Below, piece after piece: positions 3,586-43,136 of a DNA stretch of 45,206 nt. The DNA is from Escherichia phage Envy. The notes under the pieces are model-generated. The model saw nothing but the letters and a program-made list of their open reading frames with translations. It had not been told where the DNA came from and made no database searches. A program made the translations under genes and the position numbers. Position 1 is the stretch's first letter. The number at the start of each line of letters is the position of its first letter. Location of the stretch: sequence record NC_031081.1; one strand, 5' to 3'.

Positions 3586-4188
3586 ATGAAACATTGTGGG
3601 CGTTGTAATACGGGTAAAGATGAGTCCGCTTTCAACAAGGGCCAGTCGTGGTGCGCCAAATGCATGGCGGCATATAAGAAAGAGAGACGGGATAAGGAAA
3701 GAGGCGCGCCGCCGAGAGAAGTATGGCGAGAGTACACCGGGGAGATCGTAACATGTCGTACGTGCGGTGAGCGCAAGCCGCTCACGCCGGAAAACTTCCG
3801 GCCCGGAAGCCAAGCAAACGGGTCACATATTCGTAAAGAATGCCGATCGTGCGCTAATAAGTCACGCCGTGAGTACAACCACCGGACACCAGAGATCCGC
3901 GCTTACTATAAACTCTTTCAGTACCGTAAGGCAGACGAAAGGAAGGGGCTAAACACCGACCTTACTACAGAGGACGTGCTGCGCCTTACTTCTCAGCCGT
4001 GCGCATACTGCGGATTCACCGGCGACAATGGCGCGGACCGACTCGACAACGCAGTAGGCCATACGAAAGATAACTGCGTGCCGTGCTGCGTAGAGTGCAA
4101 CATAGCCCGCGGGGATCGGTTTACCCCGGACGAAATGAAGAAGTTTATCGGACCTGCCATCGCTGCCGTAAGGAAAAGCCGACAATGA
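3586..4188 (+). CDS. HNH endonuclease with two N-terminal zinc-ribbon-like modules
   Basis: CAYCGF...DNAVGHTKDNCVPCCVECNIARGD HNH-like region; two CxxC...CxxC modules; GAGG RBS before ATG 3586. Confidence 0.7.
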   Translation: MKHCGRCNTGKDESAFNKGQSWCAKCMAAYKKERRDKERGAPPREVWREYTGEIVTCRTCGERKPLTPENFRPGSQANGSHIRKECRSCANKSRREYNHRTPEIRAYYKLFQYRKADERKGLNTDLTTEDVLRLTSQPCAYCGFTGDNGADRLDNAVGHTKDNCVPCCVECNIARGDRFTPDEMKKFIGPAIAAVRKSRQ

Positions 4189-4463
4189 CACCAGAAGGCA
4201 AGGTGCAGCGTCACCTTATGAAACGGGTTAAAGAGGTTGGCGGATTCTGCCGAAAACTGGCATGGGAGGGGCGCGCAGGTGCGCCCGACCTGATTATTAT
4301 CATCAACGGCATAATAGTGTTCGTCGAAGTGAAGCGCCCAGGCGGAAAACCGAAGCCGCACCAGGTACGTGAACATGAGCGAATGGCCCGCCGCGGTGCT
4401 GACGTTCGCGTTATCGACAACATATCCGACTGCGATTTATTGGTTGCTGAATTGGTCGCATAG
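4185..4463 (+). CDS. VRR-NUC domain nuclease
   Basis: GAPDLIIIINGIIVFVEVKRPGGKPKPHQ matches VRR-NUC pattern; ATGA overlap with HNH stop. Confidence 0.7.
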   Translation: MTPEGKVQRHLMKRVKEVGGFCRKLAWEGRAGAPDLIIIINGIIVFVEVKRPGGKPKPHQVREHERMARRGADVRVIDNISDCDLLVAELVA

Positions 4464-7377: not shown

Positions 7378-7385
7378 TAAATTGG

Positions 7386-7414
7386 TTGCAGTACGGGATT
7401 GGTTGCATTATATT
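7386..7414 (+). promoter_or_regulatory. sigma70-like promoter (TTGCAG-17-TATATT) with two ATTGGTTGCA direct repeats
   Basis: hexamers and spacing upstream of 7461 CDS. Confidence 0.45.
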
Positions 7415-7460: not shown

Positions 7461-7703
7461 ATGAAACGAGTATTTTTTGATTACGACGGTGATTTACGGT
7501 TATGGGTGTGCATTGTGCTGTTCTTATTCTTTTGCCTCCTGCTGCCGATTTCCTGCACGTATAACCTCGATAAATATGAATGCCGTATTGTCTACGCAGA
7601 ACTAACAGGTCGTAACACCCAGTGGCGCTATGGCACTTGCTGGGTTGAAATGGACGGCAAATTTATACCACGCAAAGAAATTCGCATGACGGATATTAAA
7701 TAA
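7461..7703 (+). CDS. small membrane protein (about 80 aa)
   Basis: GAGGA RBS 7 nt before ATG; hydrophobic stretch LWVCIVLFLFFCLLLPI. Confidence 0.5.
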   Translation: MKRVFFDYDGDLRLWVCIVLFLFFCLLLPISCTYNLDKYECRIVYAELTGRNTQWRYGTCWVEMDGKFIPRKEIRMTDIK

Positions 7704-8161
7704 TGAAAATTTTACAAGAAGAGAAAGCGTATTGGGTAGCACAGTGTCTTGAAGCCCGCGAGAAAGCGGAAGGAGCTACCGCGCTGGCGGACACCTACCT
7801 GGCGAGCTATGAAGGCGAGGAGAAGGTCCGAAAGGAATTAGAGGAACGCTTCGAACTGCTGGGCGAACTGATCACCATTATGCAGCGCACCGGGTACACA
7901 ACATCCGTATCGCTCACCCGGCTAACCGCCGATGCCCTGCGCGAGCATTACAAACTGGCCGAGGAGTACGTCCGTCCGAAGGGCAGCCAGTCTTCGATCC
8001 CGCGGAAAGGACTGGTGCATATAGCGTGGCGTGCAAACGGCAGCTACTATTCCGATAGCCGACCGCTCAGTAAGGAGGAGATGTCCAGAGTCCAACGCGT
8101 GCTATCCAGCGGAAAGAAAACCGCCCTGTATGCGATAGATCCAGACTATGCAGAAGAGTGA
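7703..8161 (+). CDS. hypothetical protein (152 aa)
   Basis: ORF coupled to neighbours (TAAATAATG). Confidence 0.55.
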   Translation: MKILQEEKAYWVAQCLEAREKAEGATALADTYLASYEGEEKVRKELEERFELLGELITIMQRTGYTTSVSLTRLTADALREHYKLAEEYVRPKGSQSSIPRKGLVHIAWRANGSYYSDSRPLSKEEMSRVQRVLSSGKKTALYAIDPDYAEE

Positions 8162-8838: not shown

Positions 8839-9350
8839 AATTACTGATTTGCGATTTGGATGGCGTTATTAACGGTTCAAGCGATGCGCGTGCCGACCTG
8901 GTTCCGGGCATAAAAACAAAATCCACCTTTTGGGCGAAGTGGCACAAAGCGCATATACGCGAAGATCTGAACATGGATATGCTGCCGCTGCTGACCATGT
9001 ACAAAGAGCAAGGCTTCGAGATCGCGTATCTGACCAACCGGCAGCGAGAATGCTGGGAGACTACCGTCGAGCAATTGGAAGTATTCCCCGTAGGCCGGTT
9101 GTTTATGCGCCACATGCTGGACGATACCCCGCCGCCAGAGTTTAAAGCGTGCGCCGTGTTCAAAATGGTCTGCTATGCGGACGTATCGGAACTGGTCATC
9201 ATTGAAGACTGCCCGAAGAACATCGCGGCCATTCGACGGGCGTGCAGCGATCTGGTCTCGAAAATTTATGCGATAAACGTTGCAAAATTTACTTGCAACC
9301 AACCTATTGGTTGCACTATAGTTAACTCGTCGGGGCGATATGGCCCCTAA
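8835..9350 (+). CDS. HAD-superfamily hydrolase-like protein
   Basis: N-terminal LICDLDGVI (HAD motif I DxDG); 3' end overlaps the next promoter. Confidence 0.55.
   Translation: MKLLICDLDGVINGSSDARADLVPGIKTKSTFWAKWHKAHIREDLNMDMLPLLTMYKEQGFEIAYLTNRQRECWETTVEQLEVFPVGRLFMRHMLDDTPPPEFKACAVFKMVCYADVSELVIIEDCPKNIAAIRRACSDLVSKIYAINVAKFTCNQPIGCTIVNSSGRYGP
9293..9322 (+). promoter_or_regulatory. sigma70-like promoter (TTGCAA-18-TATAGT) overlapping inverted repeat TGCAACCAA-ccta-TTGGTTGCA
   Basis: hexamers plus perfect 9-bp inverted repeat. Confidence 0.45.
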
Positions 9351-19868: not shown

Positions 19869-20503
19869 CTTACGAATCCAATAGCAGTCTTAAGGGTGGC
19901 GGACACCGTTGCCGTGTAGTGCCCGTTGTCTGTGTACGACAAGCTCGAACGCTCGACCACGAATAAACCTGTTTCGCCATCCGGCGCGGTGACAACAAAC
20001 GGTTTGACGAAGTGCCCGCGAAGGAAGTTGTAAACCAGTTTAGGGTTGCACCACTTGTCAGTAGTCAGTCCGATGAATTGCACGGGGAACTGTTTCGTTT
20101 CGGCGTTCGGGCCGTCCGCGATGTTCTGACCGTAACCGTTACCAAACTGCAATTCCTCGGACCGGAAAGCCAACTGCACGTCTCCGCCACCTTGCAATTG
20201 CATGTGCCAGTAATAGGGCCATTCGTTTGATCGCGGGTCGTGCGCTTCGATTAGCTCATAAGCTGCACCGGCTTTTGTCGGTCCGGCCCAGTTATCCGCC
20301 AGGGTGATGACGGTGTTAGAGTTGAATGCCGCAATTTTTCCGGTGTAGTCGTTGCCGTCGATGCGGGTAAATACGCGGACCTTCCCGATCTCGCTCAAGA
20401 ACGCGGTTCCCACGCCTGTGATGGTCTTACTTCCCTTAGTTAGTGTGATTGTACCTTGCGCCATAAAAAAGCCCCCACGTTGTAGTGAGGGCCATTTTAT
20501 CAT
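19865..20503 (-). CDS. minor tail protein (lambda gpM-like)
   Basis: FGNGYGQ resembles gpM FGDGYSQ; ATGA overlap with tape measure stop (alternative start 20464). Confidence 0.6.
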   Translation of the reverse strand: MIKWPSLQRGGFFMAQGTITLTKGSKTITGVGTAFLSEIGKVRVFTRIDGNDYTGKIAAFNSNTVITLADNWAGPTKAGAAYELIEAHDPRSNEWPYYWHMQLQGGGDVQLAFRSEELQFGNGYGQNIADGPNAETKQFPVQFIGLTTDKWCNPKLVYNFLRGHFVKPFVVTAPDGETGLFVVERSSLSYTDNGHYTATVSATLKTAIGFVR

Positions 20504-23142
20504 CGTTTGTAAAGTACACCACCCGGTTTCGTCGCCTTCACGATCTCGGCCTTGACCGACTCGGTGATTTGCTTTCCGAACGCCTGCGCGGTGCGCGGGT
20601 CTGGACCGCTAACACTGGTATCCGTCTTACCGGTCCCCATGTTAACGTTGGTCGTTACAATCATTCCCCCGACACCGCCTGCCGCGGCAACGCCAAGTTT
20701 ACCGTCTGGCCCGCGCTTAAGCGGCATGATGGCCTCGGGGCCAGCCTCCCCCATCAATCCTGCGCCCTTAGCGAACGCCTGGACGCCATAACTGAAAAAG
20801 GTGGGCTGGCTTACCACTTGCCCCGAATAGGCCGCGAGGTTGCCCCCTGCGTACGCTCCGCCGTCCGCATTCTTAGTGAGGCCGGAGAAAATAGCGCCGA
20901 ACAATCCGTTTTTGCCGCCGTCACCGCCGAAAGCGCTAACGATGGACTTGAACGCCTGCGAGGTAGCCAGCTTTATTAATTCGCTCAGAATGGACTTAAC
21001 CATATCTTTTGCGTTCAGCTTGCCAGTCTCGAAAAACTCGTTCATCGTGTCCTGCATAGCGCCGAACGTGAATTTTGTGAGTGACGTCATCTGCGTATAG
21101 CCGTTACCCATTTCATCAACACTATCCTTAAGCCCGCGGCTGAAGCCATCCCATAGCGAGGCGTTAGCACCGGTCTGTGCTTCCTGCACTTCGCGCAGCT
21201 TAGACACCGCCAGATCAATATCGGTATCGTTAGCGCCCACCCGCTTCAGGCGATCAATTAGCTGCAATTCTTCGCGCAGGTTAGCCGCTTCGCGAGTGGA
21301 AAGCGCATATCCCGCCGCGGTGGCTTTTAGCTCGGCGTTCTGGTTCTTGATGAATGCATCGACCTGGGCGTGTGCTTTGATCTGCTTCTCTTTCGCGTCC
21401 AGCAATTTGGCTTCTTCGACGATCTGCTCGCGTACCGATTTAACCGCCTCGAACGCCGCCGTTTGCTGCTTTTCTGCTGCCGTGAGTGCGCGCTCCTTGC
21501 TCGCGGTGATTAACTGCTCATTATCGGCAATCAGCTTGTTCAGGGACGCTTGCGCGCGTTGCGTGCGGGTCTGCGTCGATGCGTTGGCTTCGATCTGCTT
21601 TCCAGACTCACGAAGCTGGGCTAATTCGCTTCGCGCGACTTCCAGCATTTTCAGCCCGGCATCGACTCGAACTGCCGCCGCTTTCTTCGGCGCGGGGTCT
21701 TTGTAACGCTCGTTGACCTGCTTCACCGCCTCGGCTAGTTCTTTCTCGTTAATAACACCGCGCATATTCAGCAAATTTAGGCGGGCGATCTCGTCGGCTC
21801 GCCGCTTCGCGTTGGTTGCGTACTCCTTCTCAAACGCGGCGCGGTCGCGGGCGGCGCGGTTTGCCTCCTCGTTCGCCTTTGCTGCTTCATCCGCGGCGCT
21901 GGCGCTGTCTCGCTCGGCACGGTTGCGAAGGGTGAGCGACGCTACTACCTTTTCCTGGGCGACCAGTTCGCTGTAAAGCATGTTAATACGCGCTTTCTGC
22001 GCTTCGGTCATCACCCCACCGGCAGCGTTTACCGCCCTCATCTCGGCATAGTACGCCGTGGTCATGCGCTGCAAGGACTCACGCGCTTTCATCTCGGACT
22101 CATTCGAGGACTGCGCGCGGCCCACATCCAGGATGGCATCCCACATAGATTTAGCTGCCGATGTAACTACGTTCATCGACCGCTCAAGCGTACCCATGTT
22201 GGACTTTACCTCATCGGTCATGCTGGAGAACGACGCAGCGGCTGTTTTGTTAGCCAGAGCAACCGCGTCCGTTTCACGACCCATATCTACAAGCGATTGC
22301 ACCTGCTGGATCTGCGCCTCGGTAACGACATGATACTTATCCGCCAGCGCACGCAGTCCGCCCACTGGGTCGTTCGACAATTTTGAGATGGATTCAACCA
22401 CGTCAGAGATCGGCTGATTAGACGCCTTCGCAAAGTCATTCACCACTTTCGCCAGCGTTCCGAAGTCTGCACCTGCTTTCACCCCCGCCGCCGCCAGCGC
22501 CTGGATTGTGTCACGCGTCTTGCGGAACGACCCGCCCATGCGCTCGGCGTTCTCGGATAGCACCAGGATCTGGTTTGCCGTTAGGCCGGAAATGTTACCT
22601 GACAGCGCCAGCGTCTTGTTAAGCGCTGAGACCTGGTTCTCTGCGCGGGACGTAATTGCCACCCCTACGCCTAAAGTTGCCGTTAGTGCTGCAATGCCGA
22701 TCCCTACCGGACCGAGGACGCCCGCGACATAACGCAGCGTGTTACCAAATCCCCCGAACGCCCCAGTAAGCTGTGGTAACTGCTGAAGCATAACGCGGTG
22801 CACCGGCATACCCATCTCAAGCGTTACCGCAATATCCTGTAACTGGAATGCGGCGTTGCGTGAGGCAAAGCCCAGGTTTTTGGTCGACATGCCTAACCTG
22901 TTGGCAAGCCGCTCCTGTTTCGTCATACCGTCGGCGGCGCGCTGCGATTCGTTCGCCAGCTTTTCCATTCCGCCCGCGGCGTCACTCGTCACCTTTTTGG
23001 ATTTGCCGAGGGTGTCGTTTAATTTCTTAACCTTGTTTTCTGTGTTCTCGGATTTCTGTGCGAACGAGTCCAGCACAGTATTTGCCGTTCTGATTTGTGC
23101 AACATCCGCCTTTAGCGTGATGCCTGCTGCCTGATCTGCCAT
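20500..23142 (-). CDS. tail tape measure protein
   Basis: 880 aa, coiled-coil rich with Gly-rich C-terminus; after chaperone G/G-T and before M-like gene. Confidence 0.85.
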   Translation of the reverse strand: MADQAAGITLKADVAQIRTANTVLDSFAQKSENTENKVKKLNDTLGKSKKVTSDAAGGMEKLANESQRAADGMTKQERLANRLGMSTKNLGFASRNAAFQLQDIAVTLEMGMPVHRVMLQQLPQLTGAFGGFGNTLRYVAGVLGPVGIGIAALTATLGVGVAITSRAENQVSALNKTLALSGNISGLTANQILVLSENAERMGGSFRKTRDTIQALAAAGVKAGADFGTLAKVVNDFAKASNQPISDVVESISKLSNDPVGGLRALADKYHVVTEAQIQQVQSLVDMGRETDAVALANKTAAASFSSMTDEVKSNMGTLERSMNVVTSAAKSMWDAILDVGRAQSSNESEMKARESLQRMTTAYYAEMRAVNAAGGVMTEAQKARINMLYSELVAQEKVVASLTLRNRAERDSASAADEAAKANEEANRAARDRAAFEKEYATNAKRRADEIARLNLLNMRGVINEKELAEAVKQVNERYKDPAPKKAAAVRVDAGLKMLEVARSELAQLRESGKQIEANASTQTRTQRAQASLNKLIADNEQLITASKERALTAAEKQQTAAFEAVKSVREQIVEEAKLLDAKEKQIKAHAQVDAFIKNQNAELKATAAGYALSTREAANLREELQLIDRLKRVGANDTDIDLAVSKLREVQEAQTGANASLWDGFSRGLKDSVDEMGNGYTQMTSLTKFTFGAMQDTMNEFFETGKLNAKDMVKSILSELIKLATSQAFKSIVSAFGGDGGKNGLFGAIFSGLTKNADGGAYAGGNLAAYSGQVVSQPTFFSYGVQAFAKGAGLMGEAGPEAIMPLKRGPDGKLGVAAAGGVGGMIVTTNVNMGTGKTDTSVSGPDPRTAQAFGKQITESVKAEIVKATKPGGVLYKR

Positions 23143-23205
23143 TATGCAGTCCCCTTTTTTATGCAGTTGCCGATTGACATTGTATCAGCGAATTTAAAAC
23201 AAACC

Positions 23206-23535
23206 TTATTCAGTCTCAGACGAGGGGGGCCATTGACCCCCGTCTAGTCTGAAAGACTGGGCTTTGTCCCGCCTGTCCCGATCGGCTAAACCCCGCGGCA
23301 GCACTGGCGGGGCGGGGGTGCTGTCCCGCTTTGTCCCGCCCCTTGTTTGTCCCGCTTTTTGTCCCGTTTGGTTTATGCAGTAAAACTGAATAGGTATGCG
23401 CTTTTCAGAGGGGTGCCAGATCGGGACGTCCCGCTTGTCCCGCTTTTAGTTTATGCAATAATAGTAAATAAGTATGCAGTTTTTGAGGGGCGGGACAAAA
23501 CGGGACGTCCCGCTTGTCCCGCTTCATTATGCGGG
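23206..23535. repeat. noncoding element copy A: conserved hairpin, GTCCCGC iterons (8 or more), palindrome GGGACGTCCC, three AT-rich TTTATGCA units
   Basis: first ~58 bp and a ~53-bp iteron block identical to copy B at 39428..39625. Confidence 0.8.
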
Positions 23536-24218
23536 GTTTTGTTGCGCCATTTCATCAAGCGCGATTCGCTCCATTAGCTTGATATCTTTAAACGCTCGCT
23601 GCTCGTTTTCGACACCGTGCATCTTAAATAACCACTCCAGCACGCCGTAGTCGATGCCGTATGCGCCACCAAATCCGGTGCGCCATTGCGTGGAGCAATC
23701 TGTGAAGACTGCGACTACCTTCGCGTTGTCAGGCCATAGCGCAACAGGCGGACAAACATCTTCGGGGGCCGCACCCCATAAACTTGCGGCTAAATCTTCG
23801 GAGGGTGGCGGCGGGCCATAAAAGCGTCGCGCCGCCTCAATTAGTTTTTTTCACGCAATCCCATCAGTTCAAGATAGTACGACGTGTGGAACACCCCGAA
23901 CGCGCGCGGATAGTTTACCACCAGGCGGCGGACGTTCTCCGCGTTAAATTCGTCTGGCAGATTCCAGCCTTCTGCGACGTGCATGATGGCCTCGACCATA
24001 ACGTTAAAGCCGTCCGGGTCATTGTCGTCATATTCCGACAACTTTCGTTCGGTGTCCTGCATGGTTTGCGAAAATTCGTCGATCGGGCGGTGGCGCACGG
24101 TAAACGTCATTTTTCCCGGTTCGTTTTCACCGGGGCGCGGGATCTCAATCGGCAGCTTAAAGGTCGGCTTAGGGTCAAGTGTGAAGAGTGGTGCTTTTGC
24201 CATTGTAGTATTCTCCAA
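23527..24218 (-). CDS. tail assembly chaperone -1 frameshift fusion (G-T-like)
   Basis: slippery heptamer A_AAA_AAC at about 23844-23850 before G stop; -1 frame stays open about 92 codons to about 23527. Confidence 0.5.
23841..24218 (-). CDS. tail assembly chaperone (gpG-like)
   Basis: 125 aa acidic protein between major tail and tape measure genes. Confidence 0.7.
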   Translation of the reverse strand: MENTTMAKAPLFTLDPKPTFKLPIEIPRPGENEPGKMTFTVRHRPIDEFSQTMQDTERKLSEYDDNDPDGFNVMVEAIMHVAEGWNLPDEFNAENVRRLVVNYPRAFGVFHTSYYLELMGLREKN

Positions 24219-25482: not shown

Positions 25483-26075
25483 TATTTCACCTTCGAATTA
25501 ATTTCTGCCGCTACGACGCGAACAATCCCCGCTGGCGCTTGTTTACTCCAGCCATACTCAAGTCGCTGCGCGTATGGCACGTTGTTAGTAAACCAGATCG
25601 ACCCGTATTCACTCGAATCATAGTGCGCCAACACTTCACGCCCAGCGGCTAATGTTGCCGTTCCGGCCTTGTCCACGCGGTCAATAGCGCCAACAGCCGG
25701 GCGGTCGAACGTAACCTGCCAGTTTCCCCGGAAGCGTCCGCCGGTGTAATTCTTCGCAGCCCAGCCACGCTGGCGGAACGTGACGTTGCCGTTTTTAGTC
25801 TTGAATGATACCAGCACGCTGGCGTGCTTTTTCTGCCCGCGCTTCAGTTTGCCACCATTCTTGCGACGCTGCGCGGCGTTCACCTTGTTCGCGTGCTGGC
25901 GGGCCAGCGCGTAAGCCCTGTTAATTTTCCACCGGCGAGGGTCGCCCACCGGGGAGATCTCAATAAGGCGTCCGAGTATTTGCATCCCGTACGCCCGCAC
26001 CGCCTTATCGTTGTTCTCCTTCGTCTTATCCACCCACGTAGCAATAGTGGCGGCGAATGAGTAGACTTCAGCCAC
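25482..26075 (-). CDS. putative neck / head-tail joining protein
   Basis: 197 aa; synteny. Confidence 0.45.
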   Translation of the reverse strand: MAEVYSFAATIATWVDKTKENNDKAVRAYGMQILGRLIEISPVGDPRRWKINRAYALARQHANKVNAAQRRKNGGKLKRGQKKHASVLVSFKTKNGNVTFRQRGWAAKNYTGGRFRGNWQVTFDRPAVGAIDRVDKAGTATLAAGREVLAHYDSSEYGSIWFTNNVPYAQRLEYGWSKQAPAGIVRVVAAEINSKVK

Positions 26076-26076
26076 G

Positions 26077-26430
26077 TTAGCCCCTTAGCTGTAGTTGAAA
26101 CAGCATGGTCGTCCCCGCCGGTTGCAGTGGGTTAGGGTTAACGACCCGGTAGTCAGTGCCGTTCAGGTTAACAAGGTCGCCCACCCGCAATTGCTCAACC
26201 GCCCGACATAAAAACTTCACATCACCGGCAACGATACGCGTTCCGTCGATCTCGCTAGGCTTGTACTCCTCGCGAAGACCTATGACGTCGAACGACGTTG
26301 GCGGGATTACCACTTCGTCGCCGTCTACGCGGTCAACCGACCCCGGACGCGTAACCGTAACGGTCATGCCGAATTTTTTAATCAGCGGATTCACTTTCCG
26401 CTTTAATCCTGCGTAATTAAAGCCCGCCAT
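26077..26430 (-). CDS. putative head closure / head-tail adaptor protein
   Basis: about 117 aa from second ATG with CAGGAGG RBS. Confidence 0.45.
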   Translation of the reverse strand: MAGFNYAGLKRKVNPLIKKFGMTVTVTRPGSVDRVDGDEVVIPPTSFDVIGLREEYKPSEIDGTRIVAGDVKFLCRAVEQLRVGDLVNLNGTDYRVVNPNPLQPAGTTMLFQLQLRG

Positions 26431-26534
26431 TATCATCCTCCTGTACCGGTGGTTCTGGTTCTGGTGCTGGCTCCTGTTCTGGTTGGCGTTTAGTATTTGC
26501 GGCGATAATAGCCGCCAGTAATGCAGGATTCATA

Positions 26535-27035
26535 TCACCCCCTGTATACGTCGAAATTGCCTGCGGCGTTGCCGCCTGAATCAACCCAGTGGCCTAACAA
26601 GCCATCCCACCACGGGAACGACACCCCGCTACCAATCGACGCCGGGTCATATTCCATCGTGATCGGGCCGACCGTTTCGCGAATAGTCTCTTTACCATCG
26701 CCGACCGGAGAAATATCGATCTCGTCCGCCACCAACATCGCCAACCGGTAAACAGCTTGCTCAACGGCAACGGGGGTTGATGCGAAGTCTACGATCTGCC
26801 CGGCAGGCACTACCGCCACAACTTCAGTGAGCGTGTCCCGCACCGGCTTACCGTCTGACGGGTAATTAATGCGGGGCCATGCGTCGATTCCGGTCTGGTC
26901 TGCTTGTTCGCCGATCCAGTTGATGCCGTTAAGGAAGTCGTTAACGGTGGTAAGGTGTCGCGTTGCATCGCCTAGCGTAATTTCAACGCCTCGCGCAGCG
27001 GCATAATCGACAAAGGTTTGCGGGTCGCCATACAT
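26535..27035 (-). CDS. putative head-tail connector protein
   Basis: about 167 aa from internal ATG with AGGAG RBS; downstream of capsid terminator. Confidence 0.45.
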   Translation of the reverse strand: MYGDPQTFVDYAAARGVEITLGDATRHLTTVNDFLNGINWIGEQADQTGIDAWPRINYPSDGKPVRDTLTEVVAVVPAGQIVDFASTPVAVEQAVYRLAMLVADEIDISPVGDGKETIRETVGPITMEYDPASIGSGVSFPWWDGLLGHWVDSGGNAAGNFDVYRG

Positions 27036-27050
27036 TGTATTCACTCCTAT

Positions 27051-27076
27051 AAAAAAGGCGGGCATAAGCCCGCCCC
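27051..27076 (-). terminator. rho-independent terminator after major capsid gene
   Basis: GGGGCGGGC-ttat-GCCCGCC then TTTTTT on minus strand. Confidence 0.65.
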
Positions 27077-27093
27077 TTTGGGATGTGCGCCCG

Positions 27094-28194
27094 TTAAGAC
27101 GCGGTAGTCGCCGTCAGCGTAACCAGTACGCCAGCGGTTTCCTTGATGTGTCGGGTAGGCACTGCCTGTGCGGCCTGGGTCTTACGACGACCTTTAGTAT
27201 CGCCATCACCCACAGCGCCAACGTCCTGCACGGTTGCCGGTGCGTTGTCTACCTGGCCCTGGTCCAGTTCCCAGTTAGCGGAAGTGGTAATATCGTCCAG
27301 TTTGAACGAGCGCACACCTTCGATCGGGGTACGAGCGGACGCCTTCAGACGGTAGCCTTTAACGGCCACGTTGAAGTCGAACTCGCCCTGCCACCAGCGT
27401 TCGATGTTCTCGTTACCGCCTTTCTCCTGCGCCAGCATATCGAGGCCGTTGGTGGTAACTGCAACCGCGCCAGGAACCAGACCCAGCATGTTACCAGCGC
27501 CCATAGCATCGGCAGCGGCATCGGAGATAATGAATCGACGGCCCAGGCCATCACCCATTACCTGTAGATCGCCAATTGCGAATACCTGTTCAGCAGAAGG
27601 GAGTGCCTGGTACGCAATGAAGTTTGCCCAGGTAACGCCGTCCATAAACCAGGACTTAATCAAAGACGCCTGATCGCCGAACTTAGAAGCCGCCAGCGGG
27701 AAGTCTGCCAGGGTCGGGAAGGTACGACCGCCAACGCCGTCAACGCGCGCCGGTTGGGTGTATTTTGCCGCTGCGTTGCTTTCGATCGCCGCTTTACTTG
27801 CGCCGATACCAGCTTTCAGGTAGTGCAGCATAATCGCTTGAGTAGCCTGTGCCGCAATCTCAGCCGCAACGCTGTTAACGTTGGTTTCGATCTTAGCCAT
27901 CATAGCCTTAGTGATTGCTACCGGACCCACTTTTGCGGAAAGGTTAACCGAGTTGGTCAGCATACGCGCCAGAACTTTCGCGGTTGCCGGAGTGCCGACA
28001 GGGGCGTAGGCGTTACGGTCGGTAACGAGGTTGGCGATCAAGCCTACGGACATTTTCTCAATAACATCCTTCAGCACTTCACCAGTACCGAGAACAACAG
28101 CGCCATTGGCGGCGGCGTTGAAAACGTTCAGGTTGTCGGGGATCATTTGCGTAACCGCGGTAACGAGTTTACGCTGGAACACTTTTAAAGACAT
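27094..28194 (-). CDS. major capsid protein
   Basis: 366 aa; follows scaffold gene; AAAGGA RBS; strong terminator downstream. Confidence 0.75.
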   Translation of the reverse strand: MSLKVFQRKLVTAVTQMIPDNLNVFNAAANGAVVLGTGEVLKDVIEKMSVGLIANLVTDRNAYAPVGTPATAKVLARMLTNSVNLSAKVGPVAITKAMMAKIETNVNSVAAEIAAQATQAIMLHYLKAGIGASKAAIESNAAAKYTQPARVDGVGGRTFPTLADFPLAASKFGDQASLIKSWFMDGVTWANFIAYQALPSAEQVFAIGDLQVMGDGLGRRFIISDAAADAMGAGNMLGLVPGAVAVTTNGLDMLAQEKGGNENIERWWQGEFDFNVAVKGYRLKASARTPIEGVRSFKLDDITTSANWELDQGQVDNAPATVQDVGAVGDGDTKGRRKTQAAQAVPTRHIKETAGVLVTLTATTAS

Positions 28195-28291: not shown

Positions 28292-28996
28292 TTACTCGTC
28301 GTCGCCCATCTTAGCGATGATTTCACCTGCCTGTTTCGTAAGGTCAGTGATACCGAAGCTGTGGCCCATAGTGATTTTCGACTTCACATCTTCGACAACC
28401 TGCGTCGGTTTGCTAGGCGCGCCACCGGCTGGCGTGCCAGCCAGGACGGATGCAAAATCGGCGTTATTACGGAACTCTTTTTCAAGCTCTTCCATAGTCA
28501 GCGCGGACGGTTTGCCATCCTGCAAGACACGCACTTTCAAGCTGCCGTCTTCGCCGTCTTCCAGCGTCAGGCGGTCCATTACGTGGCGTTGCATGATGCC
28601 CGCATTCTTACCGAATAGCTTCGATGCCAGGTCTTTGGCAGCGCTGCCGATGGTTAGATCGTGGATCTGCTTGCGGTAGGCTTCGATTTTTCCCGATGTG
28701 TCTGCTTCGTGTTTCGCAAACTTATCCTTCCAGGACTTGTCGATCGCTTCGAGGTCGCCATTTTTGCGCGCGGCGGCTTCCTCTTTCTCTTTCGCAAGGC
28801 GCTCAGCTTCGGCGCGGCGTTCAGCTTCTGCTTTCTTCTCGCTCACCAGCTTCGCGTTGTTGTCTTTCAGACCCTTGATTTCCGCCTGTACTTCTTCTGC
28901 GGTCATGAACGTTGACTTATACCCGTCACCATCGGCAACAAAAAGCGCCTTCATACCTTCCGGCAACGCGTCATATTCTGCTTTAGTAAGTTTCAT
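28292..28996 (-). CDS. capsid scaffolding protein
   Basis: about 234 aa from internal ATG with AGGGGGA RBS; coiled coil EKKAEAERRAEAERLAKEKEEAAARK. Confidence 0.6.
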   Translation of the reverse strand: MKLTKAEYDALPEGMKALFVADGDGYKSTFMTAEEVQAEIKGLKDNNAKLVSEKKAEAERRAEAERLAKEKEEAAARKNGDLEAIDKSWKDKFAKHEADTSGKIEAYRKQIHDLTIGSAAKDLASKLFGKNAGIMQRHVMDRLTLEDGEDGSLKVRVLQDGKPSALTMEELEKEFRNNADFASVLAGTPAGGAPSKPTQVVEDVKSKITMGHSFGITDLTKQAGEIIAKMGDDE

Positions 28997-29086
28997 GCTA
29001 TCCCCCTGGGATTGTGGCAGAGCAGGCCACCCGCTCGACTTCACGCTTCTAATATTATCAGCGATAAAAATAATCGCAAAATTCGC

Positions 29087-29116
29087 TTGCAATCCTCGTA
29101 TTGGTTGCACTATATT
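29087..29116 (+). promoter_or_regulatory. sigma70-like promoter (TTGCAA-18-TATATT) followed by operator-like palindrome TTGGT-tgcac-ACCAA (29116-29130)
   Basis: -10 plus leader shares about 23 identical nt with promoter at 39245..39273. Confidence 0.5.
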
Positions 29117-29145
29117 GGTTGCACACCAACAACGAGGACACACAA

Positions 29146-30396: not shown

Positions 30397-31462
30397 TAGT
30401 CATTAGTTCGCCCGTATCGGTGAACATCTTCGGCACTTTCACGCCTCGCATAATCTGGTCGGCGCGTTGCACCCCGTATAATTCTTCCAGGATATGGCGC
30501 GGCTGGCGCTGCACCCAGGAGAAGAAATCAGTCTGCGCGTCGACCTGCTCACTCAGCAATCGGCCCGCGTCAGCCTTCAGTGCCGGACGCTTACCACTGG
30601 GCCAATCTTCCATGCCCTTAACTTTCCACGTCTCCGTCGAACGGCAGCAATAATGCAGCTTGCCCGGTCCAGCGCCATATTGTGATCCCGCCACCACTTT
30701 CCCGCCGCGTTTTCCTTTGGTGTCGGGAGTGACGTCAACAGGATAAAACAGGCGATCGCGTAGCTGGCACATAGGGGAAGTATGAGTGTCCAATGTGGAC
30801 AACCATTGGCGACCTTCGAGAATATCGTCATTAGCTTTCACCATTAATTCGCGGGCGGTCGCCGCATAGTGGTTGACTGCGGACTTAACAACGCTTGAGA
30901 TTGCTTGCGCACTACGACCGCCGAGCGCGCGCCTCACGTCCGCGATAATTTCCATAGTCGGCTTGCCCTGGATGAATCCGGCGCGCACCTGATTGCCGAT
31001 CTGCGTCCTTGTCCACTCTGAAAGTGAATCCGGCCATTGCATCATGGTGTTACCCTGGAACGGGTTTTTCATCGCAGTCGCTGCGATCTGCGCGCCTGTT
31101 ACTACACCCACCACCTCGACCGCAGGTACGGCGACCACCGGCTGGATCGCTGCCGTTAATGTGTCGGCGAGATAATCGGCCTCGGTGTCGGCAAACTCCT
31201 GAAGGCTTTCAGCCAGCGCCTTAAACTCGGTGCGCAGTTCTGTTTTAACGGTCTTGTCGAGTTGCGTTAACAGAGTGGTAAGTGCCTTGTTGTTCATGGA
31301 CTTTTCGCCATCAAGTAACTCGGTCAGCTTACCCAGTAACGTGGGCCGGAACTTCGCCCACATAGCCAGCACCCGCCGCGCCTGGTCATTGCTCAGGCGC
31401 TGGGTGAAGATGTGACGACGGATCATGCGATCCGCCATATGTTGATTAATCGTTCTCGCCAT
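30359..31462 (-). CDS. head morphogenesis protein (Mu F / SPP1 gp7-like)
   Basis: QWLSTLDTHTSPMCQLRDRLFYP matches Mu-F signature; directly after portal gene. Confidence 0.7.
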   Translation of the reverse strand: MARTINQHMADRMIRRHIFTQRLSNDQARRVLAMWAKFRPTLLGKLTELLDGEKSMNNKALTTLLTQLDKTVKTELRTEFKALAESLQEFADTEADYLADTLTAAIQPVVAVPAVEVVGVVTGAQIAATAMKNPFQGNTMMQWPDSLSEWTRTQIGNQVRAGFIQGKPTMEIIADVRRALGGRSAQAISSVVKSAVNHYAATARELMVKANDDILEGRQWLSTLDTHTSPMCQLRDRLFYPVDVTPDTKGKRGGKVVAGSQYGAGPGKLHYCCRSTETWKVKGMEDWPSGKRPALKADAGRLLSEQVDAQTDFFSWVQRQPRHILEELYGVQRADQIMRGVKVPKMFTDTGELMTIAQLKNRGLWRD

Positions 31463-39216: not shown

Positions 39217-39244
39217 CGTTCAGTCCTCTTGTTGGTGTGCAACC

Positions 39245-39273
39245 AATATAGCAGGGCGCCAGGCAGGGTGCAA
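39245..39273 (-). promoter_or_regulatory. sigma70-like promoter (TTGCAC-17-TATATT) with palindrome TTGGT-N5-ACCAA at 39232-39246
   Basis: -10 and leader near-identical to promoter at 29087..29116. Confidence 0.5.
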
Positions 39274-39427
39274 CCAATATTAATCACGCGCATGAAAAAG
39301 TTGATCGCTATCTGCTGTGACTGCAAACCGCATTTTCACTCAGCATAATACAACCTGCATTGGTTGCCTAGTTCATCGACGACCGCACTTAGCATCATGC
39401 TGCCGTGTATTTTGCAATCCCCGGATT

Positions 39428-39625
39428 TTATTCAGTCTCAGACGAGGGGGGCCATTGACCCCCGTCTAGTCTGAAAGACTGGGGTGCTGTCCCGCTGTCC
39501 CGCTCCTCTGGAAGCCGCGCCATCCGTGGCGGGACGGGGGTGCTGTCCCGCTTTGTCCCGCCCCTTGTTTGTCCCGCTTTTTGTCCCGCTTACTTTATGC
39601 AATAAAACTGCATAACTATTCACTA
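39428..39625. repeat. noncoding element copy B: same hairpin, GTCCCGC iterons and TTTATGCA AT-rich unit as copy A
   Basis: identical ~58-bp hairpin module and ~53-bp iteron block at same relative spacing (108 bp). Confidence 0.8.
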
Positions 39626-39673
39626 TATTCACACTACACGGCAACCAATACGACCAGATAAAAACACTCAAAA

Positions 39674-39755
39674 TGGCGACCAATGCGCGCAAATTTTAAT
39701 CGTCTAGCGATATGGGAATCCCCATATTGGCGACCAATGCGCGCAAATTTTAATC
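39674..39755. repeat. two 28-bp direct repeats (TGGCGACCAATGCGCGCAAATTTTAATC) flanking palindrome ATATGGG-aatc-CCCATAT; second copy overlaps primase stop
   Basis: perfect direct repeat, period about 54 bp. Confidence 0.7.
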
Positions 39756-42014
39756 TTTTAAGTCGTCATCGGTCGCCGAAAGCGTGATGGGTATCTTCGT
39801 TTTGATGACGATATTCGACGACCCATAGATGGCCCCGGTGTGCGGATCGGTATAAAAACCGAGCACGCCGCGCTCGACCATATCGTCAATTGCCTTCGTC
39901 GATGTGCCACCTTTCGCAAGCCCAGCCTGGCGGACAATTGCCGATTTGCTGAATCCGGTATGGTCCGGGTTATCTTCCATCAGTTTTTCCAGCGCTGCAT
40001 AAAGCACTTTCTCTTTTTCGTTGCGCGGTCCTGCGGCGTTCTCTTCCTTAACTGCGGCCTTGCCAGCGGCCTTTGCCTGCTCAATGGCGAACGGTGCCAG
40101 GGCGACCGGTACGAGGTAAAGAGTCTCGTCGCGTGGCGTGGAGGCAATCGGCTTGACGTCCCATCCGGCAACCACGTCGCCGAAGTCTGGCCCGGTGCTG
40201 GTGGACTGGTGCGCCTCGAACGCTTCTGACTTGCGGAGATCCACCTTCACCTTGCACTTGAGCAGGACGAAGCCACGCGGCGCTTGCTTGATGCCGTTAC
40301 GTGCTTTTTCGTGATACAGGTTCAATTGGCCTGGCTGGTTGTCGTCCGGCTGTTCAAGGAAGAAAGCAGAATCGACAGCACCATGAAGCGCGCCGGATCC
40401 GCGTGGCGTTCGGCTTCCGTTTGCACCCTTAGCCGGGTGGTGGATGACGCCCGCACTGCCACCTGTATTTTCCGCGATGGCCTTCAGCGCTTTGACCACT
40501 TCGCCCATATCGCTGGCGTTGTTCTCGTCGAACGGTTTTGCATCGGCGGACCGCAGCGCAACAGTCTGGTTGAGTGAGTCGAACGCCACCAGGCCAACCG
40601 GCTCGCCGTTAGCGGTGCGGTTGATGAAGCTGATAACTTCACGCAAGCCGGATTTGCTGGTGATATCCCAGCCTCGTGATTGCAGATCGATAATGTGCAG
40701 CTTGTCCAGGTCGTGCTCATATTTAATCTGCAATGCTTCCTTACGCTGGTTAGAGGCTTCGCCACCTTCCGCGTCGAAATAGAAGCAATGAGACTGGACG
40801 ACCTTCGCACCGCCGAACGGAATACCGGCGGCAACCGCGCCCATTTGGCCCAGCACATAGAACGATTTACCGATGTTCGACTCGCCCGCCATATACCAGG
40901 TCGATTTAAAGTTAATCAACCCCTCGATGATCGGGTCGTGCTTACTGAACAGCGCAACCGGCTCGTTGTCCAGGTCTGCATCAGTACACACGCCGTACTC
41001 GTCGCCGTCTCCGACCGCATCAACGATATGTTCATAGCACGATTCCACTTCCTCATCGTCCAGTCCCGGAAGGATGGCGGCGATTTGCTTACGTGACATG
41101 TTGTGCGGCTCGACGTTCAGGTGGTCCGGGATCCCGATAAGACGTAGCGCCAGGTGCTGGTGTCTGTTCAGTTCCGAGCAACACTCGTTGCCGGTGTGCA
41201 TACACTTGAAACGGATCTCGCCATCCTTGACCATGATAGCCGTCGACCCTTCGCCGCTGTGCAGATGTTCGTTCGGGCACGGCACTTCATAACCGCGACC
41301 GGAAGATAACTCATCGAATCCTGCCTGGAAGCACCAGTCCAGAATGCCGTCTGCCACTGCGTCGTCGCCCTGGGTAAGCTCGCGGCGTACTTCCTCCTTC
41401 TCCACGCCCAACTTATCCGCCAGGCGAAGCAGACGACGGACGCGGGCACGCTTGCCGTAGTGGCACTTAATAACAGACTGCTGGTGTGGCAGGTACATCA
41501 GGCGGTTTGTGTCTTTCGTGCAATCGTCGAAGTCCACATCTGACAGACCAAGTTGGTGTAATAGCGCATACTGGACACGGCCCAGGTCTTCAGCCGGTAC
41601 AGGCTTGTCCGTGAGTACCAGGAATCGAGCGCAACGCGTGCCGCCTTTCAGCGGGTGGCGGTCGCCGGTTGTGGTGTGAAATACATGTTCCAGTCCCGCG
41701 TCGATGAACGCCTTACGGCAGCGGCGCAGGGTGCGGGTGTCGGTACGGTCAATATCGAAGAACAGGATCGAGCGGTCCACTGCACTGGTCTTGCGGCGCA
41801 AGCCGTCACTGGTATACGCCACGATACCATCGGCCTTACGCTTGCGGCGCGCATACTCGGCTTTATCTTCCGTTTTGTTGATATGCACCGAGGAGATTTC
41901 TTTCGCATCATTGATAAATTCGAAAAACTCTTCGGTAGTCATCTGGAAGTTTTCCGCCCTGGCTTTTTCGCCTTTTTTAGCGGGTCGTGTTACAGCGAAT
42001 TTAATCAAGCTCAT
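39750..42014 (-). CDS. DNA primase-helicase (prim-pol-like N-terminus, RecA/DnaB-like ATPase C-terminal half)
   Basis: 754 aa; LFFDIDRTD acidic motif; Cys/His cluster; Walker A GESNIGKS. Confidence 0.75.
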   Translation of the reverse strand: MSLIKFAVTRPAKKGEKARAENFQMTTEEFFEFINDAKEISSVHINKTEDKAEYARRKRKADGIVAYTSDGLRRKTSAVDRSILFFDIDRTDTRTLRRCRKAFIDAGLEHVFHTTTGDRHPLKGGTRCARFLVLTDKPVPAEDLGRVQYALLHQLGLSDVDFDDCTKDTNRLMYLPHQQSVIKCHYGKRARVRRLLRLADKLGVEKEEVRRELTQGDDAVADGILDWCFQAGFDELSSGRGYEVPCPNEHLHSGEGSTAIMVKDGEIRFKCMHTGNECCSELNRHQHLALRLIGIPDHLNVEPHNMSRKQIAAILPGLDDEEVESCYEHIVDAVGDGDEYGVCTDADLDNEPVALFSKHDPIIEGLINFKSTWYMAGESNIGKSFYVLGQMGAVAAGIPFGGAKVVQSHCFYFDAEGGEASNQRKEALQIKYEHDLDKLHIIDLQSRGWDITSKSGLREVISFINRTANGEPVGLVAFDSLNQTVALRSADAKPFDENNASDMGEVVKALKAIAENTGGSAGVIHHPAKGANGSRTPRGSGALHGAVDSAFFLEQPDDNQPGQLNLYHEKARNGIKQAPRGFVLLKCKVKVDLRKSEAFEAHQSTSTGPDFGDVVAGWDVKPIASTPRDETLYLVPVALAPFAIEQAKAAGKAAVKEENAAGPRNEKEKVLYAALEKLMEDNPDHTGFSKSAIVRQAGLAKGGTSTKAIDDMVERGVLGFYTDPHTGAIYGSSNIVIKTKIPITLSATDDDLKD

Positions 42015-42024
42015 TGCCGTTGCC

Positions 42025-42354
42025 TTACTTTGAAGTTTTATTATTGCGTACCCAGGAGCGCACTGTGCTCTGATTAATTCCGGTCAACTCGGCAATCATC
42101 GCCCAGGATTTACCTTCCTCACGTAGACGGATAACCTGTTTTTTGTATTCTTCCATTTCTTCATTGTGTTTTTGCAGCTTGCTTGCTGCCGTGCCGTTGA
42201 GCAATTCCAGCTTCGCGCGCAATTCTTTTTCGGTAAGTCGCAGACGTTCGATTTCAAATAGCACCGCACCCACGGCATCGGTATACGCCCAGGACCGGCT
42301 AGTCTCACTGCAAACAGTCTTCGTTAACATTTCGATTGCGTCGTTTACATTCAT
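42025..42354 (-). CDS. HTH DNA-binding protein, putative early regulator
   Basis: 109 aa; C-terminal HTH SWAMIAELTGINQSTVRSWV; first gene of minus operon. Confidence 0.6.
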   Translation of the reverse strand: MNVNDAIEMLTKTVCSETSRSWAYTDAVGAVLFEIERLRLTEKELRAKLELLNGTAASKLQKHNEEMEEYKKQVIRLREEGKSWAMIAELTGINQSTVRSWVRNNKTSK

Positions 42355-42368
42355 TGTTCTGCCCCCAG

Positions 42369-42383
42369 TTGGTTAATGACCAA
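42369..42383. promoter_or_regulatory. operator-like palindrome TTGGT-taatg-ACCAA in leader of minus-strand early operon
   Basis: perfect inverted repeat between -10 and RBS. Confidence 0.45.
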
Positions 42384-42385
42384 TG

Positions 42386-42414
42386 AAACTACACCTAAAA
42401 CCGCAGGGTGTCAA
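42386..42414 (-). promoter_or_regulatory. sigma70-like promoter (TTGACA-17-TAGTTT) for minus-strand early operon
   Basis: consensus -35 on minus strand. Confidence 0.45.
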
Positions 42415-42427
42415 CTCCTCTGGAATA

Positions 42428-42458
42428 TTGAAACGGGCGCGCACGCGTGTAATAATAC
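42428..42458 (+). promoter_or_regulatory. sigma70-like promoter (TTGAAA-16/17-TAATAAT)
   Basis: hexamers; followed about 30 nt later by a terminator. Confidence 0.45.
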
Positions 42459-42463
42459 TTTCC

Positions 42464-42521
42464 GTCTCATTGTCTCTTATTGGTTAGCGCCGTCGCATTT
42501 TGCTTCGGCGCTTTTTTTTTG
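42464..42521 (+). ncRNA. candidate short promoter-to-terminator transcript (about 55 nt): small RNA or leader attenuator
   Basis: lies between promoter 42428..42458 and hairpin plus T-run 42486..42521; no ORF. Confidence 0.3.
42486..42521 (+). terminator. rho-independent terminator-like hairpin with 9-T run
   Basis: AGCGCCG-loop-CGGCGCT then TTTTTTTTT. Confidence 0.5.
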
Positions 42522-42531
42522 AAATTAGTTG

Positions 42532-42560
42532 TTGACTCCCTTCTGCAACCAATCTAATAT
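42532..42560 (+). promoter_or_regulatory. strong sigma70-like promoter (TTGACT-17-TAATAT) for plus-strand early genes
   Basis: near-consensus hexamers, 17-nt spacer containing TGCAACCAAT. Confidence 0.55.
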
Positions 42561-42620
42561 TCACTCCGTCGACAGGGCATACCGCCCGGACACCTAAACT
42601 TAACCAATCGGAGATACACC

Positions 42621-43136
42621 ATGTTTGAACAAATCGTAAACTTGATTACTCGCGGCGTAGTAGCGCTGGAAACCATCGCTAAGCATTATGAAACCGTTGG
42701 CGCTGCCGTTGGTAAGCAGGAAGATAAAAAGCCATCTAAGGCGAAAAAAGAAGTCGTCGAAGACGACGACGATGGCGCTGAAGACGAAGCACCGGCGAAA
42801 ACCAAAAAAGCACCGGCTAAAGGTAAGGCTAAAAAAGAAGTCGTAGAAGATGACGACGACGATGCCGAAGACGAAAAACCGGCTAAGTCTAAAAAAGCAC
42901 CGGCAAAAGGCAAAGGCAAGAAAGATGCCGATCCGCTGGCAGAGATGCGCGACGAGATCAAACAGTATGCCGCGATTATTGCCGGTGGTGACGACGACGA
43001 CGCGAACGACGAATTTGACGACCTGCTGGAATCGTTCGAGATCAAATCAATCGCCAAGCTGGAAGATGAAGACGTCGAAGACTTCCACAAAGATCTTAAA
43101 GAAATCGTCGAAACTTATTTCGAACTGGAAGATTAA
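42621..43136 (+). CDS. acidic low-complexity protein with tandem 29-aa repeats
   Basis: 171 aa; repeats KKEVVEDDDDGAEDEAPAKTKKAPAKGKA x2; first gene after promoter. Confidence 0.6.
   Translation: MFEQIVNLITRGVVALETIAKHYETVGAAVGKQEDKKPSKAKKEVVEDDDDGAEDEAPAKTKKAPAKGKAKKEVVEDDDDDAEDEKPAKSKKAPAKGKGKKDADPLAEMRDEIKQYAAIIAGGDDDDANDEFDDLLESFEIKSIAKLEDEDVEDFHKDLKEIVETYFELED
42744..42917. repeat. 87-bp tandem repeat x2 inside CDS 42621..43136
   Basis: two adjacent units about 85 percent identical. Confidence 0.7.

Follow-up and report, generated by a model that had tools for sequence, protein, structure and literature searches.

The stretch of DNA considered here is a window of 45,206 nucleotides from Escherichia phage Envy (NC_031081.1), a member of Dhillonvirus, i.e., of the HK578/SO-1-like phages. 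Within its tail operon is found a non-coding element, called here region A, which we discuss as a candidate replication site. The genes around this element are all on the - strand. They are the tail chaperone gene, G (23841-24218; Pfam Phage_TAC_4, E 1.7e-23), its -1 frame extension, T (DUF1799, E 2.6e-21), which follows from a G-T slippery run, A AAA AAC, at 23850-23844, and the tape measure gene (20500-23142; 880 aa). As the TAA stop codon of T is located at 23529-23527, the complete gap from that codon to the tape measure start codon is 23143-23526. That is, the non-coding insert recognized by the initial annotation is real, as judged from the list of open reading frames (ORFs), the sequence itself, and Pfam, though it is 384 bp in length rather than approximately 330 bp. 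The premise that tail chaperone and tape measure genes usually are adjacent also holds, since in relatives such as Salmonella phage SE1 and Serratia phage Otaku, the tail modules of which are of a different kind, the tape measure gene is overlapped by its upstream neighbour.

In the window phage, region A contains no ATG-initiated ORF of at least 30 aa, and a conserved small ORF can be ruled out, as the ORFs of 15 other copies of the region vary in both place and frame. The 'hypothetical proteins' annotated at region A in other records are chance ORFs running through GC-rich repeats or, instead, the unannotated T extension. The GenBank record of Escherichia phage Sloth (KX534339.1), which the window matches at 100% identity, lacks the G-T frameshift product, and where the T frame ends it supplies just a 39-aa 'hypothetical protein' (record positions 31170-31286).

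Region A possesses three kinds of components, which are a hairpin, an array of short GC-rich repeats, and AT-rich units. The compound hairpin is found at 23211-23259, with the sequence that had been ascribed to it. It is a bulged structure of 49 nt consisting of an outer stem (CAGTC/GACTG), a middle stem, an inner G5/C5 stem, and a variable loop, and its fold has a z-score of -3.1 when the - strand is folded as RNA and of -3.6 when the + strand is folded as DNA. In each case just one shuffle out of 200 was equally good. The heptamer GTCCCGC, expected from the initial annotation in eight or more copies in both orientations, occurs exactly nine times in region A (eight on the + strand and one on the -), and 23 times in the window vs. 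8.7 expected. The hexamer GTCCCG, hereafter ‘box’, is present 13 times in region A (10 on + and three on -) vs. approximately 0.2 expected per 384 bp.

The arrangement of these boxes is regular. Following the hairpin there is a first pair of boxes on the + strand (GTCCCGCCTGTCCCG, 23266-23280), conserved in alignment, then a GC-rich, nearly invariant spacer (GATCGGCT...GCGGCAGCACTG, 23281-23322), and then four direct boxes, again on the + strand (23323-23366), with starts at 23323, 23333, 23349, and 23361, i.e., spaced by 10, 16, and 12. Next is a direct repeat of 79 bp, present at 23367-23445 and again at 23446-23524, and both of its copies hold one AT-rich unit along with boxes. Unit 1 (TTTATGCA...TATGC) occupies 23372-23399, with its TATGCR ends conserved and its interior variable. 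Between the two units (23422-23442) are the perfect palindrome CGGGACGTCCCG and one direct box, which is a stretch that is marked as a repeat_region in phage jat. Unit 2 (TTTATGCA...TATGC at 23450-23477) lies within 23445-23484, a candidate DNA unwinding element (DUE) that shares first place with 7693-7732 for AT content among all 40-bp windows of the 45-kb genome (GC 0.20). Boxes of opposite orientation are found to both sides of this element, i.e., at 23422(-), 23428(+), and 23437(+) vs. 23491(-), 23501(-), 23507(+), and 23516(+). The distal group (23491-23521) consists of CGGGAC (23491), a second CGGGACGTCCCG (23501-23512), and GTCCCG (23516), with this right-hand palindrome retained in 14 of 16 copies of the region. 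The palindrome noted initially is present, that is, twice (23422-23433 and 23501-23512), and of three claimed AT-rich units two are full ones. The third is instead a pair of TTATGCAG motifs, 17 bp apart (23142-23149 and 23159-23166), overlapping (23142-23166) the start codon and ribosome-binding site (RBS) region of the tape measure gene. Lying between that pair and the hairpin, on the - strand and 36 nt upstream of the tape measure ATG, is TGATACAAT (23179-23187), which as read from the sequence is likely an extended -10 promoter for the tape measure gene. A consensus promoter scan made no call there, the motif being without a -35 match, and ATTGTATCAG is invariant across the 16 region A copies.

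Region A has a sister. The 184-bp module at 23206-23388, which comprises the hairpin, six boxes, and the beginning of the AT-rich DNA, has an 89%-identical counterpart at 39428-39610, where there is a hairpin (39433-39481) with identical stems, seven boxes, including the four direct boxes with the same spacing (39545-39588), and the start of another AT-rich stretch. This copy lies in a 533-bp non-coding gap (region B, 39217-39749) that extends from the stop codon of a primase-helicase gene and which also contains boxes of a separate motif, GCRACCAA, considered below. In an unbiased scan for locally clustered 6-mers, region A ranks first genome-wide (13 copies) and region B second (seven), with a block-shuffled maximum of 4-5. 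Clusters of GTCCCG boxes are confined, in this genome, to these two regions, and the AT-rich unit of region B ranks fourth among the genome's 40-bp windows. Sodalis phage SO-1, in a GenBank record from 2009, has both gaps marked as ‘repeat_region’, under the labels region A and region B and with a mention of sequence similarity, the span of region A being the same 384 bp. That record alone flags the repeats, and no paper on the function of either region was found in the literature.

Regions A and B are, from sequence comparison, old and separately kept paralogues which predate the radiation of the genus. Identity is 0.90 among A copies and 0.92 among B copies, vs. 0.84 between A and B. Concerted evolution of the two is not seen, A resembling B about equally within genomes (0.839) and between them (0.831). 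The spacers at 23281-23322 and 39503-39544, furthermore, differ between regions, the first being GATCGGCT...GCGGCAGCACTG with a Dam site and the second GCCGCGCCATCCGG, yet each is nearly invariant among phages, so each sister copy has its own conserved extra element. Region B varies elsewhere: a 54-bp segment (39676-39729), in which two 27-bp direct repeats (GGCRACCAATGCGCGCAAAnTTTAAT) flank the palindrome GATATGGGAATCCCCATATC, is present in only six of 14 distinct copies.

Region A is present at 82-100% identity in 157 phage records, i.e., in 157 of 157 Dhillonvirus records, these being all of the records that contain a T protein at a minimum of 80% identity. No copy was found among plasmids or in 5,426 E. 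coli genomes. Conservation within the region, as mean pairwise column identity among 16 distinct copies, is 0.988 for the hairpin stems vs. 0.76 for the hairpin loop, 0.913 for the boxes, and 0.943 for the TATGCR ends of the AT-rich units. Other positions in region A score 0.80, and third codon positions of the flanking genes score 0.75. Stems, boxes, and unit ends therefore are under purifying selection, with spacers drifting almost neutrally. At region A several records contain either erroneous ORF calls or sequence that is rearranged and possibly misassembled. In Bas84 (PQ850611.1, 740-760) a run of 12 G's replaces the last boxes along with the 3' end of the T frame, and in TH11 (MT446389.1, flagged UNVERIFIED, 200-1090) there is a tandem duplication of approximately 510 bp that encompasses region A plus the 3' end of T. 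These oddities look like assembly or sequencing trouble at a palindrome-rich locus, though they may be real rearrangements.

Outside of the genus, the closest counterpart is supplied by Edwardsiella phage eiAU-183 (Eiauvirus, NC_023555.1), the tape measure protein of which is 37% identical. There, 1116 bases that are non-coding or occupied by a reverse ORF separate T from the tape measure gene, and 897 follow the helicase-primase gene. The two gaps have in common a 52-bp segment (88%) consisting of CGCCCCG/GCCCGCCCC repeats plus AT-rich TTATTGATTTA. The repeats, that is, differ from GTCCCG, with the two-site layout as in Dhillonvirus. Just upstream of the eiAU tape measure gene there is, too, a hairpin, with core GACGGGGG-loop-CCCCTCGTC and a single-base bulge as in Dhillonvirus. 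Its outer stems differ from those of Dhillonvirus but still pair, and this is the only hint of compensatory change. Hairpin scans gave related matches solely in Dhillonvirus and eiAU contigs, and a scan of IMG/VR with GTCCCGC-N(1-3)-GTCCCGC returned matches that mostly were due to chance. As to the eiAU-183 record itself, it is linearised inside of its region A (42123-43017 and 1-221), and the gap carries a reverse-strand ORF, gp54 (42367-42720), that has its own TTGGTTGCA-type promoter before it (see below for this type). The eiAU junction thus tolerates inserted cargo.

Among Guernseyvirinae, Salmonella phage SE1 encodes a helicase-primase that is 44% identical, and that gene is followed by a 361-bp gap (3751-4111). 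This gap contains a C-rich repeat that again is a different one (TCTCCCC, five of eight copies in 150 bp), along with AT-rich DNA and an inverted repeat that is rich in GC, and there is no gap at the tape measure junction of this phage. Serratia phage Otaku has a 585-bp gap in the equivalent place (25988-26572), in which TTCCGCACA is found four times, both orientations being represented, together with a large inverted repeat that is GC-rich. On the basis of sequence these gaps possibly are the origin regions of those phages. The tail-operon copy is common to Dhillonvirus and Eiauvirus, and the site following the helicase-primase gene probably is the older and more widespread of the two. The conserved hairpin, and its place inside of the junction between G-T and the tape measure gene, is particular to this lineage.

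The protein that might bind the boxes, i.e., the candidate initiator, is the primase-helicase encoded immediately next to region B (39750-42014, - strand; 754 aa). Pfam recognizes in it only a RepA-like AAA_25 helicase core, and its PHROGs label is ‘replicative helicase-primase’. The N-terminal domain is likened to the archaeo-eukaryotic primase (AEP) type by structure matches to 3h20 and 3h25, which are RepB' of plasmid RSF1010. The last approximately 100 residues are by far the most divergent in an alignment with five homologues, and an AlphaFold2 model of residues 653-754 gives three helices followed by a beta wing, i.e., a winged helix, with core predicted local distance difference test (pLDDT) values of approximately 80. 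Best PDB matches of that model by Foldseek are MarR/IclR winged helices (E 0.01-0.1). Both the AEP-type primase and the winged-helix models rest on a six-sequence alignment and as such represent moderate evidence. No PDB chain was matched by the primase-helicase by sequence at E <=0.01, and a word-indexed protein search employing the C-terminal domain returned one fragment only. As modelled, primase plus helicase plus C-terminal winged helix is the make-up of a self-loading initiator. The repeat sequence varies by lineage, and so too does this C-terminal domain.

The phage also encodes a polymerase, an Enc34-type SSB (single-stranded DNA-binding protein), and one more helicase, along with an exonuclease and a Dam methylase, to which the SO-1 record adds a ligase. 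In terms of sequence-specific DNA binders, Pfam finds no other than a 109-aa helix-turn-helix (HTH) protein. That protein had been put forward as a binder of the array, and our guess is that it better fits the genome-wide GCRACCAA motif than it does the GTCCCG boxes. An argument from co-variation of HTH protein and repeat was dropped, the small HTH proteins of the window phage and of eiAU not being homologous.

Comparison with known systems is instructive as to what kind of element this may be. Origins of Staphylococcus aureus pathogenicity islands (SaPIs) consist of 6-12 penta- or hexamer iterons found directly after rep, with a central AT-rich region and at least two iterons per side in opposite directions, and SaPI Rep, which sometimes is fused to primase (PriRep5), has a C-terminal winged helix (PMC9371898). 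The phage regions are similar in having hexamer iterons, 13 in A and seven in B, in the flanking of a region A AT-rich unit by oppositely pointing iterons, in the placement of region B directly after the initiator-helicase gene, and in the apparent combining, as in PriRep5, of primase, helicase, and C-terminal winged helix in one modelled chain. They are dissimilar in lacking sequence homology, including to SaPI Rep as the above-noted absence of PDB matches applies despite the expectation that SaPI Rep structures should be in that database. The helicase, too, is RepA/AAA_25 (RecA-like) vs. the AAA+ clade of SaPI Reps, and there are here two separated copies, one in the tail operon, to which a conserved bulged hairpin is attached.

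Bacillus phage SPP1 has two origins consisting of direct repeats together with a DUE that is AT-rich, of which one, oriR, interrupts virion gene order and has been proposed to stall forks, thereby triggering a switch to concatemeric replication (PMC6316719). The likeness is that of two distant but similar regions, one at replication genes and the other interrupting virion assembly genes. The repeat sequences are unrelated, however, with oriL found inside of a gene and region B instead intergenic, and in SPP1 origin binding falls to a protein of its own, gp38, which cooperates with a loader and a DnaB-type helicase. No gp38-like domain turned up in Pfam and PHROG scans of the tested ORFs, with no direct comparison with gp38 made.

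In satellite phage P4, ori and crr are two iteron-bearing regions several kb apart, the second of which consists of direct repeats that each hold iterons, and the P4 alpha primase-helicase binds both by means of a C-terminal winged helix that serves as its origin-binding domain. The primase of alpha is of another type, its helicase belongs to superfamily 3 (SF3), and the iteron sequences are unrelated. The oriV of RSF1010 likewise has iterons, GC-rich and AT-rich segments, and conserved hairpins, ssiA and ssiB, which are primed by the AEP-like RepB'. Those hairpins, unlike here, are side by side on opposite strands, vs. one per module, on the same strand, and 16 kb apart. That the primase might recognize the region A hairpin as RepB' does ssi is pure conjecture by analogy. 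By analogy as well, the kind of element probably is a two-copy iteron origin of a self-loading primase-helicase, as known from SaPIs, SPP1, and P4.

Because its sister array adjoins a replication gene, region A most likely is a second replication site. Stated in full, region A would be a cis-acting replication site that is bound by the primase-helicase, which is a reading toward which we lean tentatively, on the strength of sequence, protein models, and analogy. This is in line with the origin that was suggested upon initial annotation, which is the best supported among the options even though it stays an inference rather than something demonstrated. Counted in its favour are the sister copy beside the primase-helicase gene, the confinement of box clusters to two loci, the purifying selection, the high AT content of the units, the modelled winged helix, the two-site layout of eiAU, the C-rich repeats of SE1, the parallel change by lineage of repeats and C-terminal domain, the phage's own set of replication proteins, and the SaPI and SPP1 precedents. 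The GTCCCG boxes in this case would be iterons, read by the C-terminal winged helix of the primase-helicase, and duplex opening would occur at 23445-23484, bracketed by boxes of opposite orientation. Region B, beside the primase-helicase gene, and region A, in the tail operon, would together form an origin pair, with region A acting as second origin or instead as a site where forks are stalled by the bound initiator and where concatemer synthesis, driven by recombination, begins, in the manner proposed for SPP1 oriR. The hairpin, if extruded as single-stranded DNA, might show the AEP-type primase where to prime or to load, which is the least certain step. From the extended -10 promoter, located downstream of the hairpin, the tape measure gene and the distal tail genes would then be transcribed anew. 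The most specific version of this is unlikely, i.e., that region A is a working second origin or programmed site of fork arrest and recombination start, with its hairpin read by the primase-helicase as a priming or loading signal, and with the two sites constituting a theta-to-concatemer switch wired into late-gene expression.

A number of observations weigh against the replication site, as either placed or understood. Region A is flanked by tail genes and is 16 kb distant from the gene of the primase-helicase, which is not the SaPI arrangement, and region B fits the SaPI rule less well than does region A because its boxes flank only one side of its AT-rich stretch. GC skew follows transcription, giving no origin signal. 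A DnaA-dependent origin, as could be thought of given the resemblance of TTATGCAC to TTATNCACA, was rejected, as there is no perfect box in 30 copies and, in the region A of the window, none even at one mismatch. In eiAU the heptamer occurs 18 times vs. 17.6 expected genome-wide, being clustered only locally, so for that phage only local clustering and the 52-bp segment count. The position following the helicase-primase gene also is not universally an origin-like gap, as Jersey (Jerseyvirus) and a Kagunavirus carry there a small reverse gene and no long gap. In both genera the hairpin, furthermore, points the same way and remains close to the tape measure start, and it is on the same strand in A and B, which fits a role in RNA or in transcription at least as well as it does that of a priming signal. 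Indeed, with orientation and distance fixed in two genera and with a conserved extended -10 promoter following, the element may in part function in transcription or in mRNA, and not in replication. The literature, lastly, provided no binding, marker-frequency, or deletion data on the element.

Transcription supplies the strongest competing explanation, though we view it as somewhat doubtful. Region A would be a transcriptional control region, its boxes serving as operator or activator sites for a phage regulator and its hairpin ending or attenuating transcripts that read through from head and tail-tube genes. Expression of the tape measure and distal tail genes would be set separately, at a lower level, by the extended -10 promoter, and region B would act likewise at the early-to-middle gene boundary. 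Both modules do lie at boundaries of gene blocks in one long, same-strand transcription unit. TGATACAAT is invariant ahead of the tape measure ATG, a good sigma-70-like promoter follows region B, the orientation of the hairpin and its closeness to the tape measure gene are kept in eiAU, and the annotation of phage WFI places a terminator inside of region A. Tape measure protein, moreover, is needed in far fewer copies than is tube protein or chaperone. Less readily accommodated are 13 two-way boxes found around the genome's most AT-rich DNA, which for an operator is unusual, and the hairpin itself, which is not a canonical intrinsic terminator. A terminator scan made no call at the main hairpin on either strand, calling only the box palindromes, on the + strand, and the T-run after the hairpin is displaced by 8-10 nt in region A and absent in region B. 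Nor was a candidate regulator of matching distribution identified.

The recognizable phage promoter motif, also, is a different one, i.e., pairs of TTGGTYGC that occur genome-wide. This motif, GCRACCAA on the other strand, is present 23 times in the window vs. 4.3 expected, and 23 times in eiAU vs. 1.8 expected. Sites in the window are at 157-235, 4440-4459, 7382-7406, 9295-9314, 29101-29122, 39239-39277, 39641-39737, and 42545, and those in eiAU-183 are at 26870-27642 and 42934-43017. The pairs are intergenic and display a sigma-70-like geometry, that is, TTGGTTGCA with a -35 of TTGCAx, a 17-nt spacer which holds the second box, and a -10 of TATAnT. The promoter at region B (TTGCAC, 17 nt, TATATT; 39285-39230) is sigma-70-like in this manner. 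Two GCRACCAA promoters are followed by a TTGGT/ACCAA 5' hairpin ahead of the RBS. The motif probably represents, as judged from sequence, a family of phage promoters or operators conserved across two genera. None of these promoters is accompanied by GTCCCG boxes, which argues that the boxes take part in a process of another kind.

A structured RNA, the next explanation in order, strikes us as rather unlikely. Here the hairpin, of approximately 20 bp with small bulges, would be a processing, stability, or polymerase-modifying site within late mRNA, e.g., an RNase III site giving the tape measure mRNA a defined end, or instead a put-like antitermination RNA, with the GCGGGAC repeats forming further RNA structure or binding protein. 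The - strand RNA of the gap in fact folds at a z-score of -6.1, the two copies are on the coding strand of one long operon, and the loop varies freely with the stems fixed. The bulges are conserved as well, with one single bulged base common to Dhillonvirus and eiAU in spite of differing outer stems. The + strand folds about equally well, however, as is to be expected for inverted repeats in DNA, and AT-rich units flanked by inverted boxes are left unexplained. No Rfam 15 family was matched, the best hit (E 0.028; 26.7 bits vs. a gathering score of 83) being, as were all others, a microRNA-type chance match on inverted repeats. Compensatory changes are absent among 30 Dhillonvirus copies, and as the stems do not vary, those copies by covariation say nothing for or against a folded form. 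Stem invariance points to sequence-specific recognition of both arms.

Very improbable is that region A is some other DNA site, i.e., a pac or terminase-binding array, a recombination hot spot, or a selfish duplicated segment without phage function: three Dhillonvirus records plus eiAU-183 start or end inside of region A, and TH11 and Bas84 are rearranged there, but record ends are conventions or are assembly breaks at repeats, PhageTerm on phage EE09 puts ends approximately 15 kb from region A, 11 kb separate the region from the terminase genes, and against junk or selfish DNA stand strong purifying selection, presence in 157 of 157 genomes, and the lack of copies in plasmids and E. coli. Some pac sites, such as that of P1, are hexamer arrays. 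The cos sequence of EE09 as given by PhageTerm, ATCTTAAGGG, has no exact match in the window phage.

Apart from these elements there are two other clusters of short repeats in the window, six GACGAA and six CGAAGC (801-1100 and 28601-28900), which lie inside of an SSB-like gene (271-1002) and of a 283-aa ORF (28292-29143), and which probably are simply repeated codons in coding sequence.

Dhillonviruses number among the small coliphages that are isolated most often, with 157 genomes, including members of the BASEL collection and phages employed in studies of defence systems. Regions A and B provide for these phages two precise candidate replication sites, and the primase-helicase a candidate initiator, which are directly testable. 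If the replication reading is true, then the logic of a self-loading, iteron-reading primase-helicase, as seen with SaPIs and P4, would extend to a lytic siphovirus, and E. coli would gain a tractable counterpart to the SPP1 oriL and oriR. It would also explain why a highly conserved siphovirus junction, that between the G-T chaperone and the tape measure gene, is split in these phages, by 384 bp here and by more than 1 kb in Eiauvirus.

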